This document shows positions 2,045 to 7,342 of a stretch of DNA of 12,204 nt, in pieces. How positions within the stretch are numbered: position 1 is the stretch's first letter; each line of letters begins with the position of its first letter. The stretch lies in IMG/VR virus record IMGVR_UViG_2667528155_000014; one strand, 5' to 3'. The DNA comes from a virus. Taxonomy: Duplodnaviria > Heunggongvirae > Uroviricota > Caudoviricetes. A model generated the notes under the pieces. That model saw only the letters and a list, made by a program, of their open reading frames with translations, ran no database searches and was not told the DNA's origin. A program made the position numbers and the translations under genes.

Positions 2045-2308
2045 TGAGTTGTGCTTATCCACTAACTGAAACTTGACAGTAAAAAGCTGCGGGTGATTTT
2101 TGTGGAAATATCAATGTGCAAGATGAATGGAAGTATAACTAAGTTATATCAGTGTTTAAATGCAGGCGAAGAGTAATAAAGCATATGATTAAGGTCAAAT
2201 TACGTCGCTGAAAAAGTATTGCAATTTGAGCCATAAACTGCTTCAATCACTGTATGCTTCGCAAAGCTGTATCGCGAGGTCAAGGATGCAGAACATGAAC
2301 ACCAGATG

Positions 2309-2647: not shown

Positions 2648-2711
2648 TTGTCAGCCGCTGTCTGCGGGTAATAGGTTCCCCCCGTTGCAGTGAATCCCAC
2701 TAGCGTAGGGG
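2648..2711 (+). promoter_or_regulatory. promoter-leader module copy A (TTGTCA -35 at 2648-2653, ATAGGT -10 at 2671-2676, conserved leader hairpin 2686-2711)
   Basis: sigma70-like hexamers 17 bp apart with CTGCGG in the spacer; leader TGCAGTGAATCCCACTAGCGTAGGGG is homologous to copies B and C; candidate PR'-type late promoter. Confidence 0.4.
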
Positions 2712-2803
2712 CATCGTCAGGTTTCGCTTCCACTGTTGACGTTGCGGTTAATACCATCGGGAGGCACCCGGCACTGCGGCAAATTGAAAACGGCGGTAAT
2801 TCA

Positions 2804-2830
2804 GGGCTCACTTCGGTGAGCCCTTTTTCA
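2804..2830 (+). terminator. rho-independent terminator (tR'-like, ~120 nt downstream of module A start)
   Basis: Perfect 8-bp stem GGGCTCAC / GTGAGCCC with TTCG tetraloop, followed by TTTTT. Confidence 0.7.
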
Positions 2831-2853
2831 TTTCGCCGACATGATAAAAAGCT

Positions 2854-2915
2854 TGATCTAAAGCACCTGCCGTTTATACGTTACCTCCTGCGGTGAATCT
2901 CACCAGCGTGAGGGG
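2854..2915 (+). promoter_or_regulatory. promoter-leader module copy B (TTGATC -35, ATACGT -10, leader TGCGGTGAATCTCACCAGCGTGAGGGG at 2889-2915)
   Basis: Same architecture as copy A; CTGCCG in spacer; leader contains overlapping inverted repeats GGTGA-ATC-TCACC and CTCAC-CAGC-GTGAG. Confidence 0.4.
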
Positions 2916-3402
2916 TGTGGCACTATTCATTCTGCCAGTATGTATTGCACCACACCATGGATACGTTTCACCGGGTTGCGACCGGCACCGCACTCATATC
3001 GGGTCGTGGAGATAGATTATTCGGGCTCTACTTTTAAATTGGTCATTGATGTGATTTCTGAGCGGGAAAATGCAGAATAAATACAGAACTGCTAATGCTC
3101 TAAAGGCATATTTACGCAGTATCAGATTTACAACGAATCAGGTATTCTTAATTAGCATCATTCTGTTGGTCATCGGATTATTAGGGGCAATAAAACTTAG
3201 TGTATGGGCTCTATTGAGTTGAACAATAGTTACATGCTAATAAGATTTATCGCTTTATCTCCTTTTTTGGCGTAATAATTCAGGTAGGGTGGGTGTTAAC
3301 AGTCTATTTAACTTGTTTGTGATTTACAGCCGAACAGATTGACTGTTGTAGCCTGCTGGTGATTTGTTTTTCTCATTCCTTTTTTACTTGGAGTGATGAA
3401 CA

Positions 3403-3837
3403 ATGATTACTATCGTACTGAATAAAATTAACCAGATCTTATCCCATGCTGACTTTGGTAAGTTCCTGTTAAGACTTGCTGTTGGTGGGCTGATGTTATT
3501 TCATGGTTTGCATAAGCTCTTTGCAGGAGTTGAAGGTATTAGCGGCATGCTTATAGCTAACGGCTTACCTGGATTTTTCGCATACGGAGCAATTGTGGGA
3601 GAGGTTTTGGCTCCAGGCCTGATTATTCTTGGGGTTCTTACTCGCCCCGCAGCACTGTTGCTGGCTTTTACAATGATTGTGGCCTGGCTTCTGGTGGGGG
3701 TAGAGGAAACATGGATGCTCGAAAGTACTGGCGCGTGGGGAATAGAAAGCCTGGTGTATTTTTTTGTTGGCTCTCTGTCAGTTGCATTACTGGGGGCAGG
3801 GCGTTATTCGGTCGCCAGGGGAACTGTATGGAATTAG
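3403..3837 (+). CDS. DoxX-family integral membrane protein (moron/cargo gene)
   Basis: 144 aa, four hydrophobic segments, LMLFHGLHKL-type N-terminal helix typical of DoxX proteins; GGAG 9 nt upstream of ATG; AT-rich upstream region. Confidence 0.6.
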   Translation: MITIVLNKINQILSHADFGKFLLRLAVGGLMLFHGLHKLFAGVEGISGMLIANGLPGFFAYGAIVGEVLAPGLIILGVLTRPAALLLAFTMIVAWLLVGVEETWMLESTGAWGIESLVYFFVGSLSVALLGAGRYSVARGTVWN

Positions 3838-3886
3838 TAAACCTGGATGGATGAATACACATTTAATGAACAGGGATGATGACGTT

Positions 3887-3913
3887 GAAAAAAGCCCGTC
3901 ATACAGAACGGGC
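3887..3913 (-). terminator. hairpin with T-tract on the minus strand (possible minus-oriented terminator)
   Basis: Stem GCCCGT / ACGGGC with 8-nt loop; plus strand has A6 upstream of the stem, so the U-tract is on the minus-strand transcript only. Confidence 0.3.
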
Positions 3914-4076
3914 AAAATCACACATAAGCAGAAAATAATTGAGGTCGCTTCATGGGAGAAGCAGAAAGAACATAATGATTTTTTTCTGAACCGGTCAAGT
4001 GTGATGTCTTAGCTTTTTGAAGGTTTAATTCTCCGTGCGCAGTTTCGCATTTTGAGTAATTTATTTGGAAGAGGCC

Positions 4077-4140
4077 TTGCCTGCCAGAATCTGCGGACGA
4101 TAAATTTTTCTCATTGCGGTGAATCTCACTAGCGTTGAGG
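4077..4140 (+). promoter_or_regulatory. promoter-leader module copy C (TTGCCT -35 at 4077-4082, ATAAAT -10 at 4100-4105, leader 4115-4140), likely promoter of the tRNA/lysis transcript
   Basis: Best-matching hexamers of the three copies, 17-bp spacer with CTGCGG; leader TGCGGTGAATCTCACTAGCGTTGAGG; a shared CCGGCACCGCA box at 4211-4223 directly abuts the tRNA. Confidence 0.45.
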
Positions 4141-4228
4141 CTTGCTGAAATGGAGAATTTTCGCGAAGCAGATTGTGTATCAGCGCGCAATCTACCGGAA
4201 TAATAGCGGTCCGGCACCGCAGCGTCAT

Positions 4229-4305
4229 GGCCCTTTAGCTCAGTTGGTCAGAGCGTGCGACTCATAATCGCCAGGTCGCTGGTTCAAGTCCAGCAAGGGC
4301 CACCA
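4229..4305 (+). tRNA. tRNA-Ile2 (anticodon CAU, lysidine type; by anticodon alone could also be tRNA-Met)
   Basis: Full cloverleaf: acceptor GGCCCTT/AAGGGCC, D-arm GCTC...GAGC, anticodon loop CTCATAA, T-arm GCTGG-TTCAAGT-CCAGC, encoded CCA. T-arm and anticodon arm match my recollection of E. coli ileX; a prophage copy would be ileZ-like. Confidence 0.85.
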
Positions 4306-4308
4306 AAA

Positions 4309-4384
<76 letters not shown>

Positions 4385-4649
4385 GTTTTGAATGGGCGCT
4401 GCTTTTTGCAAAATTGCTGTGTAAAAATACTGACCTTCCGGTCCAGCGCTCATCCAAAAGCACTCCGTTAAAATCCTGGCAACCATGGGTGGTTTGTTGG
4501 ATGGAGTGCCTCCGAATAATAAAACTCGCGTTATAAAGGCTGCGCATTTGCGTGGCCTTTTTCGTATTCAGATCTGCAGCATACTCAGCCCGGAAGGCTG
4601 AATTTTTTCACCAGTACACAGCACCATCCGGAAACCGGGGGTGAGGTAT

Positions 4650-4985
4650 ATGAAAATGAATGACAAAAACCCTGAATTCTGGGCGGCGGTTTTGACCGGA
4701 CTCAAAAATGCGTGGCCCCAGTTACTGGGGGCATCAATGGCCGGACTCATTGCTTATGCCCGCCTGATATACGATGGCGTCACGCGAAAAAATAAATGGC
4801 TTGAGGGCGTCCTTTGTGGCGCCCTTTCTTTATGTATCACCAGTGCGCTGGATGCGTTTGGCCTTCCTGTATCGATATCACCCTTTGTCGGTGGCGTGAT
4901 TGGCTTCGTCGGCGTGGATAAATTACGTGAAATTGCCATCAGTGCGCTTAAAAAACGGGCAGGGATAAATGATGAGAACCAGTAA
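4650..4985 (+). CDS. S: class I holin, lambda S-like, with dual-start motif (Met-Lys-Met)
   Basis: MKMNDKNPEF... starts at ATG 4650 and ATG 4656 behind GGGGGTGAGG; three hydrophobic segments; C-terminus KKRAGINDENQ resembles lambda S KKAGVEDGRNQ as recalled. Confidence 0.85.
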   Translation: MKMNDKNPEFWAAVLTGLKNAWPQLLGASMAGLIAYARLIYDGVTRKNKWLEGVLCGALSLCITSALDAFGLPVSISPFVGGVIGFVGVDKLREIAISALKKRAGINDENQ

Positions 4986-5391
4986 AATTTCTCGCGGGAT
5001 CCGCAACAACAACCCCGGCAATATCCGGTGGGGTGATGAGTGGCAGGGCCTGGTACCCAAAGCACAGCGCACTGATAAATCATTCTGCCAGTTCACTACG
5101 CCTGAGTATGGTATCCGGGCGATGATCATCATCCTGCGCAATTACCAGCGTAAGCACGGGCTGAACACGGTTACCGGCATTATTAAACGCTGGGCGCCGC
5201 CGAACGAGAACAACACGCTGGCGTATATCAACAACGTGGCTCAGGCGACGGGTGTTACTCCCGACCAGCGCATTGATACCAGTGACAGTCGTTTCATGAT
5301 GAAGCTGTTGCAGGCCATTATTAAGCACGAGAACGGTAGCCAGCCATACAGCTTTGATACGTTTATCCGCGCGCTCGAACTGGCGGGTTAA
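4969..5391 (+). CDS. putative endolysin (small peptidoglycan hydrolase, family not resolved; N-terminal RNNNPGNIRWG motif)
   Basis: 140 aa, no TM segment, start overlaps the holin stop. Assignment rests mainly on position between holin and Rz/Rz1. Confidence 0.55.
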   Translation: MMRTSKISRGIRNNNPGNIRWGDEWQGLVPKAQRTDKSFCQFTTPEYGIRAMIIILRNYQRKHGLNTVTGIIKRWAPPNENNTLAYINNVAQATGVTPDQRIDTSDSRFMMKLLQAIIKHENGSQPYSFDTFIRALELAG

Positions 5392-5413
5392 GTGAGCGTG
5401 TATTAAAAGCGAA

Positions 5414-5450
5414 AACCCCGATTGCGGCAAACAGTCGGGGTTTTCTGTTT
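5414..5450 (+). terminator. rho-independent terminator (T-rich on both sides, probably bidirectional) between endolysin and spanin genes
   Basis: 8-bp stem AACCCCGA / TCGGGGTT with 13-nt loop, followed by TTTTCTGTTT; plus-strand AAAAGCGAAAA upstream gives a U-tract for the minus strand too. Confidence 0.55.
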
Positions 5451-5539
5451 CTGCACCTTGAGGAAAGCAAGGGAGAAATTATGTATAGGGAGGTGTGTTC
5501 CCTGTGAGGAAGTATAAACGAATTCTGTTGAGGTTGACT

Positions 5540-5677
5540 ATGAAAAACGGCCTTGAAATAGATGCTCCGTTAACAAAAGAAATCAGTAGTGCTACGGCAT
5601 GGGCTATACGGGCTGTGGCGTTGACGGTTGTGCTGTATGGTATTGCGCGCCTGATTGTGGCGATTCGCTGGTGGTAG
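5540..5677 (+). CDS. small protein with C-terminal transmembrane segment (45 aa), unknown function
   Basis: ATG at 5540 preceded by GAGG at 6-nt spacing; hydrophobic AWAIRAVALTVVLYGIARLIVAI; stop 5 nt before the Rz start. Below the usual size threshold, hence low confidence. Confidence 0.3.
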   Translation: MKNGLEIDAPLTKEISSATAWAIRAVALTVVLYGIARLIVAIRWW

Positions 5678-5681
5678 AGCC

Positions 5682-6254
5682 ATGAACCGTATAACGATTA
5701 TCGCAATAATTTCGTTCCTGGTTGTGGTTGTTATGCTGGTATTCAGCCGGGCCGACCTTGCTGTATCAGAAAGTGATAACCGGATCCTTCGCAATGATAA
5801 CGCGCTACAGGGGCAGGTTATCGCCACTCAGGTTTTCAACTTTAACCGGTTTAATCAGGTTGCTGATAATACCAGCCGCCTTAACTCCCTGATTGATGCC
5901 GGTTCCGAAAAAACAGTTATTGAATACCGGGAGATACTCCGTCGTGAAAAAACCTGTGATTTGCCTGTTCCTGCTGATATCGCTGACGGGCTGCTCGACC
6001 ACGCGTACCGTTTACGTGCCAGCGCAATGTACCCCGATCCCCGGAACGCTGATGCAGCCGGTGGTGACACCATTACCGCCAGCTCTCTGACATACTGCCA
6101 GGCTGTTCTCTGGATCGGGCCGCTGCTGGCTACTATTGAGAAGGCGAATAACCAACTGACTGGTATCAGTAAAATTGAGTTGGAACGCAAGCAACTAGGA
6201 AAAATTATGGAGTTAAAGGACAGAGACGTTAAGGTTGTAAATCATTTTAAATGA
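5682..6254 (+). CDS. Rz: Rz-like inner-membrane spanin (i-spanin)
   Basis: MNRITIIAIISFLVVVVMLVF N-terminal signal-anchor like lambda Rz (MSRVTAIISALVICIIV), then a long charged/helical periplasmic domain; contains an embedded +1-frame lipoprotein ORF. Confidence 0.8.
   Translation: MNRITIIAIISFLVVVVMLVFSRADLAVSESDNRILRNDNALQGQVIATQVFNFNRFNQVADNTSRLNSLIDAGSEKTVIEYREILRREKTCDLPVPADIADGLLDHAYRLRASAMYPDPRNADAAGGDTITASSLTYCQAVLWIGPLLATIEKANNQLTGISKIELERKQLGKIMELKDRDVKVVNHFK
5944..6090 (+). CDS. Rz1: Rz1-like outer-membrane lipoprotein spanin (o-spanin), embedded in Rz in the +1 frame; GTG start (alternative in-frame ATG at 5893)
   Basis: VKKPVICLFLLISLTGC lipobox (LTGC) followed by a proline-rich mature region (TPIPGTLMQPVVTPLPPAL); GGGAGA 9 nt upstream of GTG 5944; entirely inside Rz. 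Confidence 0.75.
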   Translation: MKKPVICLFLLISLTGCSTTRTVYVPAQCTPIPGTLMQPVVTPLPPAL

Positions 6255-6373
6255 ATATGAATGTGATAAATGTAAGTTGGGCTGAATAGTTTTCAGCTCT
6301 ACATCATGTAATGATATGTATCTCGATAATTAAATTATTTTTTATAGATATATTTGTAGTAAGTGTGGATTTG

Positions 6374-6405
6374 AAGGGTATCTTAATAAAAATACCCTTT
6401 TCTGT
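6374..6405 (+). terminator. possible terminator hairpin downstream of Rz
   Basis: 8-bp stem AAGGGTAT / ATACCCTT with 10-nt AT-rich loop, followed by TTTCTGT; weak U-tract. Confidence 0.3.
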
Positions 6406-6433
6406 CGAATGTTTACAAACGATAATTTTTATC

Positions 6434-7342
6434 CTATTGAAGGAAGTTCCGAGCCCGAAGAAAGTTTTGAGCAATCAGGTCGCCAATTGGATTTAAAACA
6501 TATGAATTAAAGTCATTTATGGTCGATACGCCAAATGCATCTAGAGTTAACTTTAAAGCAGGAAATGTTTCAAAGAACATCTCATCGCTTTCAAAGCTGG
6601 TGATTCCAGTCCTTTTTCCAAGTAGGTCTTGATAGTTTGTTATGTATTGCTTGTCTGTGAAGATAACGCCTTTTAAGCTGAGGAGATCAATGTTTATTTT
6701 TCTCAAAGACTCTATTTTATCTAAGAATTTAATGTAATCAATATCATAGCGAGCATAGTATTCTTTGTGGGCTGAATGGTTTTGCTCTACGGTAAAGCCA
6801 ATTAATCCAAAGTGAGTTTCATTTCTTTCAGCAAGAGCTGTCATGTTAATACCGTTTCGTATCTTATTTATGTTTCTGAGGTAATATATTAGAGAGAGAA
6901 ATTTAATGTCGTTTGTTGTTAATTTAGATGTCACCTCAAGAGCGTGATCTATAACTATACTATCCTCTTCTTCTTCAGTTTGAATTTTAGAAACGATTAG
7001 CTCTTTAAGTAACTCCGATTTTTCATCAAATCCTTTTCGAGCCACCTGAGTTACAGCTTGGTTCATCGAATATTGAATGTCAGGGTCGGATAATTTCTCT
7101 TTTAATTTATGATCAAGATCACTAGAAAGTTTAGCTGCAATCTGATTACCAAATTCTATCGCTCGTTGGTTTACAAGTTTATATGCTTCCTCTTTTAAAG
7201 AAGCCATTTGTGCTTGAACTACTAATTCACAGATAGTAACTACTTCAGTAGTAGTATTACCAATGATAGCATCACCGGTTACTTGGATTGCGGTAGAACC
7301 ATCTCCGACATGTTGACCCGACTTATGATCGAAAAGACTCAT
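6434..7342 (-). CDS. hypothetical 302-aa protein, AT-rich cargo gene of unknown function (candidate phage-exclusion/defence component)
   Basis: Long clean ORF antisense to the late operon; AAGGA 6 nt upstream of ATG 7342; ATGA overlap with the upstream small ORF; no family recognised by inspection. Confidence 0.7.
   Translation of the reverse strand: MSLFDHKSGQHVGDGSTAIQVTGDAIIGNTTTEVVTICELVVQAQMASLKEEAYKLVNQRAIEFGNQIAAKLSSDLDHKLKEKLSDPDIQYSMNQAVTQVARKGFDEKSELLKELIVSKIQTEEEEDSIVIDHALEVTSKLTTNDIKFLSLIYYLRNINKIRNGINMTALAERNETHFGLIGFTVEQNHSAHKEYYARYDIDYIKFLDKIESLRKINIDLLSLKGVIFTDKQYITNYQDLLGKRTGITSFESDEMFFETFPALKLTLDAFGVSTINDFNSYVLNPIGDLIAQNFLRARNFLQ

Follow-up and report, generated by a model that had tools for sequence, protein, structure and literature searches.

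The stretch of DNA considered here, the caudoviral record IMGVR_UViG_2667528155_000014 (12,204 nucleotides (nt); hereafter the window, taken at its full length), comes from a lambdoid prophage and covers its late-regulatory region. It codes for a DUF1367 protein (619–1218), a YbcO nuclease (1218–1508), a Q-like protein of 179 amino acids (aa) (1505–2044; DUF1133), a DoxX protein (3403–3837) and a holin (4641–4985). The Q-like protein matches the PF06530 Phage_antitermQ model with 29.8 bits against a cut-off of 26, and its Salmonella homolog, with 65% identity, sits immediately upstream of a match to isrK, which is the position of the Gifsy-1 antiterminator AntQ (PMC4825925). Between the Q-like gene and the holin gene, all on the + strand, lie three homologous modules, each consisting of a promoter-like site and a structured RNA: A (2648–2780), B (2853–2992) and C (4077–4222), respectively 604, 809 and 2033 nt downstream of Q. 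These modules, which an earlier note on this DNA had read either as duplicated PR'-like late promoters with a pause or antitermination leader (Q-dependent, or cis-acting as in HK022 put) or as conserved boundaries of exchanged morons, are the subject of the present analysis. Several public assemblies hold nearly identical copies of the prophage (L158–L162 and L037), which contribute no divergence information; megablast and blastn searches of the region against phage records and Escherichia coli genomes returned only the transfer RNAs (tRNAs), a short match to the candidate PR' block described below and a Fels-1 fragment; the prophage does not come from E. coli.

The three modules share a 21-nt core, TGC(A/G)GTGAATC(C/T)CAC(T/C)AGCGT, at 2686, 2889 and 4115, and their alignment spans the −35 region, the leader and a distal box; the core repeats, the alignment and the model scores given below place the copies within 1–2 nt of where they had first been reported. 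The promoter-like site of A (2648–2677, +) is made up of a −35 hexamer TTGTCA (2648–2653), an 18-nt spacer with the motif CTGCGG and a −10 hexamer TAGGTT (2672–2677), agreeing with the consensus at 8 of 12 positions. That of B (2853–2882, +) has TTGATC, an 18-nt spacer with CTGCCG and TACGTT (2877–2882; 7 of 12), and that of C (4077–4106, +) has TTGCCT, an 18-nt spacer with CTGCGG and TAAATT (4101–4106; 8 of 12). Thus, a common pattern of TTGnnn, 18-nt spacer and TAnnTT can be discerned, with the −10 ending 6–7 nt (6 nt in A) before P1, the helix with which the structured RNA begins. The −35 hexamers are those originally read, and the best −10 hexamers lie one base further to the right than had been proposed.

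This positioning extends to the wider family to which the modules belong. In 55% of 91 distinct upstream regions, a site whose −10 ends 2–7 nt before P1 agrees with the consensus at 8 or more of the 12 positions, as against 3.7% of control segments. The promoter sequences across the family are not homologous and yet their position is conserved, suggesting that selection acts on the start of transcription at P1. In uninduced Salmonella LT2, RpoD signal from chromatin immunoprecipitation with exonuclease treatment (ChIP-exo) has been reported at the promoters of multi-copy STnc100 (PMC10794520). From these patterns we infer that each of the three copies carries a weak sigma-70-type promoter placed for a start at P1.

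On the strength of covariance-model scores and shared architecture, the three repeats are diverged paralogs of STnc100, a known and very common prophage small RNA (sRNA) gene related to EcOnc27 and PasD. The earlier note had rightly perceived a real repeat made of a promoter and a structured RNA leader; this family identity had escaped it. The Rfam model for STnc100 (RF02076) recovers copy A with 66.2 bits (E=1e-12), above the gathering score of 47, and gives copy C 30.6 bits (E=0.0016) and copy B 23.3 bits (E=0.12). As the Rfam model contains flanks and a terminator that are missing from B and C, a core-only covariance model, R2, was built from 41 relatives with the window sequences excluded. 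With filters off, R2 scores A at 59.9 bits, C at 46.1 and B at 39.3 (E values of 1e-14, 4e-11 and 2.5e-9, respectively), and the next best match in the window reaches 6.6 bits. The copy number is, therefore, exactly three: a fourth STnc100 copy sought after Q (2045–2230) gave no covariance-model match. The structured cores so delimited lie on the + strand at 2684–2780 (A), 2889–2992 (B) and 4114–4222 (C), the last ending 6 nt before a tRNA.

The window copies share with STnc100 the sequence blocks GGUGAAUC and CCGG...CCGGCAC, the helices P1, P2 and P5, a sigma-70-like promoter match placed at P1, the terminator in the case of copy A, the location between Q and the lysis genes, and the multi-copy arrangement. 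They also depart from it in several ways: P2 is CYCAC with a 4-nt loop rather than CCCCC with a 6–7-nt loop, the middle region is shorter, and copy A is without the usual GAGUC/GRCUC helix, whereas B and C are without terminators and fall under the gathering score, with C additionally being fused to a tRNA.

The structural evidence for this assignment is extensive. The leader hairpin that had been noticed by eye, CYCAC/GUGRG, is helix P2 of the family, and the replacement of U-A in B by C-G in A within it is a true compensatory change (pair 18–31 of the alignment A5). The downstream box CCGGCAC(C/T)GC is equally real; what had been missed is its role in pairing, since its first part is the 3' strand of P5 (CCGG.../...CCGG) and the rest, with no base in between, is the 3' strand of P1, a long-range terminal helix in which 5' UGCRGUG pairs with 3' CACYGCA; in STnc100 at large the two blocks of P1 are (U)GGUG and CACC(A). 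The two strands of P1 are GUUGCAGUG and CACUGCGGC in A, UGCGGUG and CACCGCA in B, and UUGCGGUG and CACCGCAG in C. Hence, where the 5' strand of P1 varies between A and G, its partner in the distal box varies in step between U and C, so that an A-U pair in A corresponds to a G-C pair in B and C. In all three copies P2 stands directly after an AAU(C) linker and P5 (CCGG/CCGG) abuts the 3' strand of P1, with the sequence of P2 being a variant one in the window copies and the loop of P5 being different in B and C. The overall architecture can be described as an RNA domain of roughly 100–110 nt forming a multi-helix junction closed by P1, with P2, a variable P3 (to which most relatives add P4) and P5 inside it; in copy A, P1 encloses P2, P3 and P5. 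Each window copy taken alone folds by free energy into this architecture. The minimum free energy (MFE) fold of A is markedly stable relative to shuffled sequence (z = −3.2), and that of B, which keeps P1, P2, P3 and P5, does not exceed shuffled sequence in stability (z = −0.9).

Comparisons across the family show that the structure covaries. Among 20 relatives, the four-helix structure is 96.9% paired, as against 34–46% when the partners are slid, and compensatory changes on both sides are found in 15 of the 23 pairs, with none of 500 shuffles reaching the observed values. Among 129 covariance-model matches (103 distinct), 95.3% of the positions are paired and compensatory changes are seen in 20 of the 23 pairs; the paired percentages of P1 lean high because the seed was picked by a regular expression that required at least 5–6 P1 pairs and because the alignment A7 was fitted to the model, whereas the variety of compensatory pair types is independent of that P1-based selection. 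A mutual-information scan recovers the same helices and, in addition, P3. Thus, the covariation of the hairpin is not noise: over 103 distinct relatives, four helices covary. The same cannot be said of the alternative overlapping stem GGUGA/UCACC proposed earlier, which is 68% paired, displays no compensatory change, does no better than shuffles and is accordingly rejected. A pseudoknot between the loop of P2 (GCG) and a conserved CGCG was also considered and set aside, as mutual information places the CGCG in the ordinary helix P3.

The copies diverge most conspicuously in how they end. Copy A is followed by an intrinsic terminator (2803–2829, +), whose presence had been asserted from the start and is confirmed by a terminator scan: a 9-bp stem, AGGGCUCAC/GUGAGCCCU, precedes a run of five U. 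In the alignment to the Rfam model it falls on the terminator segment, and it resembles the terminator of copy 1 of Fels-1. The predicted RNA would be about 146 nt long, and A is most likely, from its sequence features, a complete sRNA gene with its own promoter and terminator. Between copy B and DoxX (2993–3402) no terminator-like site is present. The notion that B carries a decayed copy of the A terminator was tried and dropped, the similarity being borderline only. The same interval holds an uncalled open reading frame (ORF) of 50 aa (3070–3222, +) with a predicted membrane-spanning stretch; it has no protein family match, is not called in the public gene calls of the prophage, and protein family scans of the small ORFs of the window likewise gave no match.

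Copy C, as had been correctly observed, abuts a tRNA, which has the anticodon CAT, begins at 4229 (4229–4305, +) and is 89% identical to the ileZ-type tRNA of Shiga toxin (Stx) phages. It is succeeded by a second tRNA-like sequence (4309–4385, +) resembling tRNA-Arg(UCU), which matches Rfam only at model positions 8–63, has unpaired acceptor-stem halves, is not called by ARAGORN and is probably a pseudo-tRNA. Further on, between the tRNAs and the holin gene, a terminator scan finds two terminator-like hairpins (4535–4601, +) that would stop transcripts from promoter C before the lysis genes. Such an ending on a tRNA is not confined to the window. The 3' ends of 123 family cores include 79 with a terminator, 40 with none detected and 4 with a tRNA 3–6 nt on, these last being window C, two in the comparison locus L034 and one in L036. 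They join different cores to tRNA-Met(CAT) or tRNA-Arg, which indicates that the core-tRNA junction recurs within the subgroup; one more L036 copy is followed by a truncated tRNA.

These 3' contexts bear on the possibility that A alone is a working gene, that B and C have lost their function and are either remnants in decay or scars of recombination, and that DoxX and the tRNAs are served by read-through or by other promoters. B and C do score lowest in every model and have no terminators, the fold of B is no more stable than shuffled sequence, and degradation is plain to see in two neighbours, the second tRNA and the yecR-like gene. However, all helices are kept in B and C despite middle regions that cannot be aligned, and their P1 and P2 differ from those of A by compensatory rather than disruptive changes. 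The −35 TTG, the −10 TAnnTT and the 18-nt spacing are likewise kept in all three copies, and L034 and L036 show the kind of core-tRNA junction seen in C, made up of different cores and different tRNAs. Hence, simple decay of B and C appears unlikely.

The tRNA fusions might also be taken to suggest that the family is a portable promoter-plus-RNA cassette, whose 3' end comes either from a terminator or from RNase P where a tRNA is fused 3–6 nt downstream, so that C and the junctions in L034 and L036 would be sRNA-tRNA units and the RNA would have a tRNA-related role. The topology of up to five helices does resemble a class II tRNA in having a terminal helix, a 3-nt linker and a last hairpin stacked on the terminal helix, and the modules tend to cluster with phage tRNA genes. 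If this were true, factors that process or target tRNAs might meet the RNA as a decoy or partner, and it would not work by ordinary seed pairing. We hold such a role to be distinctly unlikely.

Another way of viewing the terminator-less copies is that the domain acts in cis on its own transcript, either by put-like antitermination or by stabilizing it or protecting it from Rho, with the copies being expression cassettes for morons. A base-paired 5' end protects RNA against 5'-end-dependent decay, and P1 would suit such a role. Moreover, the domain always begins at the predicted +1, about one third of the family cores have no detected terminator (with four fused to tRNAs), and B and C head downstream genes. 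Against this, 79 of the 123 copies have their own terminator within tens of bases, which would not be expected of an RNA that suppresses termination, and the O157 RNA accumulates as a discrete terminated species (PMC7873438). Nor is an ORF any commoner downstream of terminator-less copies (18 of 30) than of terminated ones (21 of 42). The likeness to put of HK022 is that both are structured RNAs encoded right behind a phage promoter, with a genome holding more than one of them. However, put is built of two adjacent, tandem hairpins, about 70 nt in extent, and belongs to the early operons of a phage that has no N. In the STnc100 domain, a terminal helix closes a junction with as many as five helices, and the RNA usually ends at a terminator. 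A primarily cis-acting role is, in our estimate, highly doubtful.

The multi-copy state itself is widespread among relatives. STnc100-type arrays comprise 3 copies between Q and holin in Fels-1, 3 in L034, 5 in L036, 4 in L047 and 5 in L101, and an exact 20-mer of P5 plus P1 is found in more than 120 viral contigs. The arrays span 4873–6628 in Fels-1 (L033), 2082–4341 in L036, 2325–3351 in L047 and 4381–8516 in L101, with tRNAs and tRNA fragments interspersed. STnc100 is known from the Fels-1 and Gifsy prophages of Salmonella, and EcOnc27 from Stx2 phages of E. coli O157, where it lies downstream of stx2B. In 933W, a single copy stands 75 nt downstream of stxB2 and faces AsxR in convergent orientation, and this member corresponds to the Hfq-binding EcOnc27/sRNA103 (PMC12711010), which has been detected in lysogens by northern blotting and Hfq-CRAC as a discrete, terminated, Hfq-bound RNA (PMC7873438, PMC12711010). 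STnc100 and PasD of enteropathogenic E. coli (EPEC) have been reported as structural homologs by Zhu, Shabalina and Storz (bioRxiv 10.64898/2026.05.13.724894). PasD1 and PasD2, which Hfq RIL-seq brought to light, parallel the window copies in that their lambdoid prophages encode them next to a Q gene (10.64898/2026.05.13.724894); their relation to the window copies is known at second hand, and their neighbourhood differs in having a PF03589-type Q and lpxR, rather than the DUF1133/PF06530-type Q and DoxX of the window.

The distribution of the family does not follow that of Q. Only about 8 of 29 loci with orthologs of the Q-like protein hold an STnc100 module within 5 kb, and the family follows at least three different Q types, namely those of 933W, Fels-1 and the DUF1133/AntQ-like kind. 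The spacer motif CTGC(G/C)G fares no better in this respect: it occurs in 1 of 90 other family promoters outside the window and, searched for as TTG-N11-CTGCSG, was neither found next to the Q orthologs in the 29 loci nor enriched, so that by these comparisons it is specific to this prophage. Within the first 30 transcribed bases no −10-like pause element is conserved, the only candidate being TAGCGT (3 of 6 positions) at about +17 in A and C, which is absent in B.

Immediately beyond the Q gene, a further promoter-like site is seen at 2073–2092 (+), 29 nt after the Q stop codon, where TTGACA-N8-CTGCGG keeps the register of the A, B and C promoters. Four sites of the form TTGnnn-N8-CTGCSG are thus found between Q and the tRNAs, all on the + strand, as against 0.22 expected by chance for a pattern that was itself derived from three of the four sites it counts. 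Local alignment of the 2073–2092 site with the promoter of copy A is not significant (51 of 1000 shuffles). In another assembly of the prophage (L160, 6569–6995), an intact YecR-like gene of 113 aa lies behind a site of the 2073 type; in the window the YecR-like gene has a 318-nt internal deletion at about 2122–2126 (region 2073–2176, +). The 2073–2092 site is presumed to be the promoter of this gene. The four CTGCSG promoters may reflect common ancestry or a common regulator.

A better candidate for the late promoter lies between this moron and copy A. The segment 2219–2339 (+) contains TTGCAA, a 17-nt spacer and TTCAAT, a −10-like TATGCT (2253–2258) standing where a lambda-type pause element would lie, a conserved initial transcribed block up to 2279 and a terminator (2308–2339). 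In 9 loci of other genera, the same block immediately follows Q orthologs, as ...TA(T/C)GCTTCGCAAAGCTGTATCGCGAGG..., followed by a terminator AACCCGCC...GCGGGTTTT. In the window, about 190 nt separate it from Q, these being the remains of the YecR-like moron that is intact in the other assembly. By analogy with lambda PR', it is likely the PR'/tR' of this Q family and a better candidate for that function than A, B or C. In other loci, the same post-Q place is occupied by a second sequence variant (TGATAGGCTCGGGACGTTAAAGCGAACTGAGCA plus terminator).

The view that the three promoters, along with the site at 2073–2092, are Q-responsive and of the PR' type, with CTGC(G/C)G as the Q-binding element and the leader providing the pause, has some appeal in light of the four sites in one register on one strand and the Q-like nature of the upstream gene. 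The Q-binding element of lambda sits in the interval from −35 to −10, and CTGC(G/C)G is likewise located in the spacer. However, the near-absence of the motif from other family promoters and its absence at the Q orthologs, the want of a conserved −10-like hexamer early in the transcript, the association of the modules with unrelated Q families and their absence from most loci with this Q all argue against it, as does the existence of a separate block beside the Q orthologs with the hallmarks of PR'/tR'. There is a broader parallel with lambda PR'-qut-6S RNA and with PR'-StxS of 933W and Sp5, in which a promoter, a short transcript and a strong terminator occur together in the late region and the by-product RNA may act as an sRNA (PMC7547250). 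Yet, PR' in the 933W annotation lies directly after Q and is specific to it, whereas the window modules are 604–2033 nt off, are without a pause element and do not track the Q family in their distribution. The comparative evidence, thus, appears to lend no support to Q dependence of A, B and C, and we regard that reading as very improbable. The same observations leave the two corresponding suggestions of the earlier note unsupported: neither the placement of the modules nor their spacer motif travels with the Q family, and no conserved −10-like element exists in the initial transcribed region to make the leader a pause leader.

The reading preferred here is that A, B and C are paralogous STnc100 prophage sRNA modules, situated between Q and the lysis genes, with promoters independent of Q; we consider it probable. 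Under it, the promoters would fire independently of Q in the lysogen. The RNA from copy A would end at its own terminator as a stable sRNA of about 146 nt, which, by analogy with its relatives, would probably be associated with Hfq and act in trans. Copy B, having either lost a terminator or never had one, would supply a promoter and a structured 5' leader to the 50-aa ORF and the DoxX moron. Copy C would do the same for the tRNA pair and be co-transcribed with the tRNA, where cleavage by RNase P at 4228/4229, 6 nt after P1, would free the copy C RNA. Late Q-dependent transcription would most likely start separately, near 2219–2258, and read through all these units. The position of the modules at the edges of morons, counting the sRNA itself, DoxX and the tRNAs as such, is in keeping with what had been suggested earlier.

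Several observations weigh against this reading. B (23.3 bits) and C (30.6 bits) fall under the Rfam gathering score of 47, and both are without the terminator that normally gives the Hfq-binding 3' end. The similarity of the tail of B to the terminator of A is borderline (51 of 2000 shuffles reach it), so that it does not follow that B lost its terminator. None of the three promoters passed a stricter consensus scan, which leaves them as consensus matches only. The spacer motif that the site at 2073–2092 shares with the three copies also hints at a common regulator, for which the preferred reading does not account.

To the extent that the repeats are copies of a known sRNA gene, and not of a Q-controlled late promoter, the finding is mostly an ordinary one, and for annotation it means that such repeats downstream of Q are not to be called late promoters. 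Nevertheless, STnc100 is among the most frequently annotated enterobacterial sRNAs and has virulence cargo, Shiga toxin for one, as a neighbour. With three diverged paralogs in a single prophage, the constrained parts of the domain, namely P1, P2, P5 and the start at P1, can be told from those that are free to vary, namely the middle region, the sequence of the promoter and the type of 3' end. The fusions to tRNAs, together with the terminator-less copy before DoxX, further suggest an additional use of the domain, as a leader for morons. The fusions and the map of constrained parts are modest additions to what is known of the family.

On the opposite strand, the roughly 190 nt upstream of A and of C are homologous to each other (Smith–Waterman score 57, as against 17.8 ± 2.5 in shuffles), and each contains a minus-strand unit in which a promoter-like site is followed by a 5' hairpin (GCUUC/GAAGC) and then by a terminator. 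The unit upstream of A (2450–2566, −) has TTGATA (2566–2561), an 18-nt spacer and TACGGT (2542–2537), with a predicted RNA of about 80 nt ending in a terminator stem (2479–2460) and a U-tract. The unit upstream of C (3888–3998, −) has TTGACC, an 18-nt spacer and TATGTT (3998–3969), with a predicted RNA of about 75 nt, a terminator stem at 3913–3894 and a fold z of −3.6. The two terminator stems differ from each other by a compensatory change. Both units stand head to head, i.e., with back-to-back promoters, with copies A and C. Neither 2450–2534 nor 3888–3962 matches the AsxR/AgvB models RF02703 and RF02702 at E up to 10; no Rfam match is significant, the sole hit being a weak one to Esr41 (19.3 bits), and a 14-mer scan with CGGGCAAAATCACA in viral contigs gave chance matches only, none with the hairpin context.

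This arrangement recalls the dyads of Hfq-binding sRNAs that lie between the late promoter and the lysis genes in at least 8 Sakai prophages (PMC7873438). In the dyads of enterohaemorrhagic E. coli (EHEC), AsxR/EcOnc27 and AgvB/EcOnc06 (Tree et al. 2014, per PMC7873438), an STnc100-type RNA on the late strand is accompanied by a short terminated RNA on the opposite strand, as in the window, but the pairing in 933W is convergent and tail to tail, whereas that in the window is divergent and head to head. In both Fels-1 and 933W, an AsxR-like minus-strand terminator lies tail to tail after the first copy.

Two further minus-strand features may be recorded. Just downstream of the terminator of a minus-strand unit, a strongly hydrophobic ORF of 24 aa (MPCHEKMAIAICVIALIFALIFGK; 2361–2435, −) is preceded by a GGAG Shine–Dalgarno sequence; it has no family match and looks like a gene for a small membrane peptide or a type I toxin-like product. 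After the gene at 4969–5391, a strong hairpin, AAAACCCCGA.../...UCGGGGUUUU (5402–5477, −), gives Rfam hits of 25–27 bits, below threshold, to the sar and rimP leader families, and is probably a bidirectional terminator.

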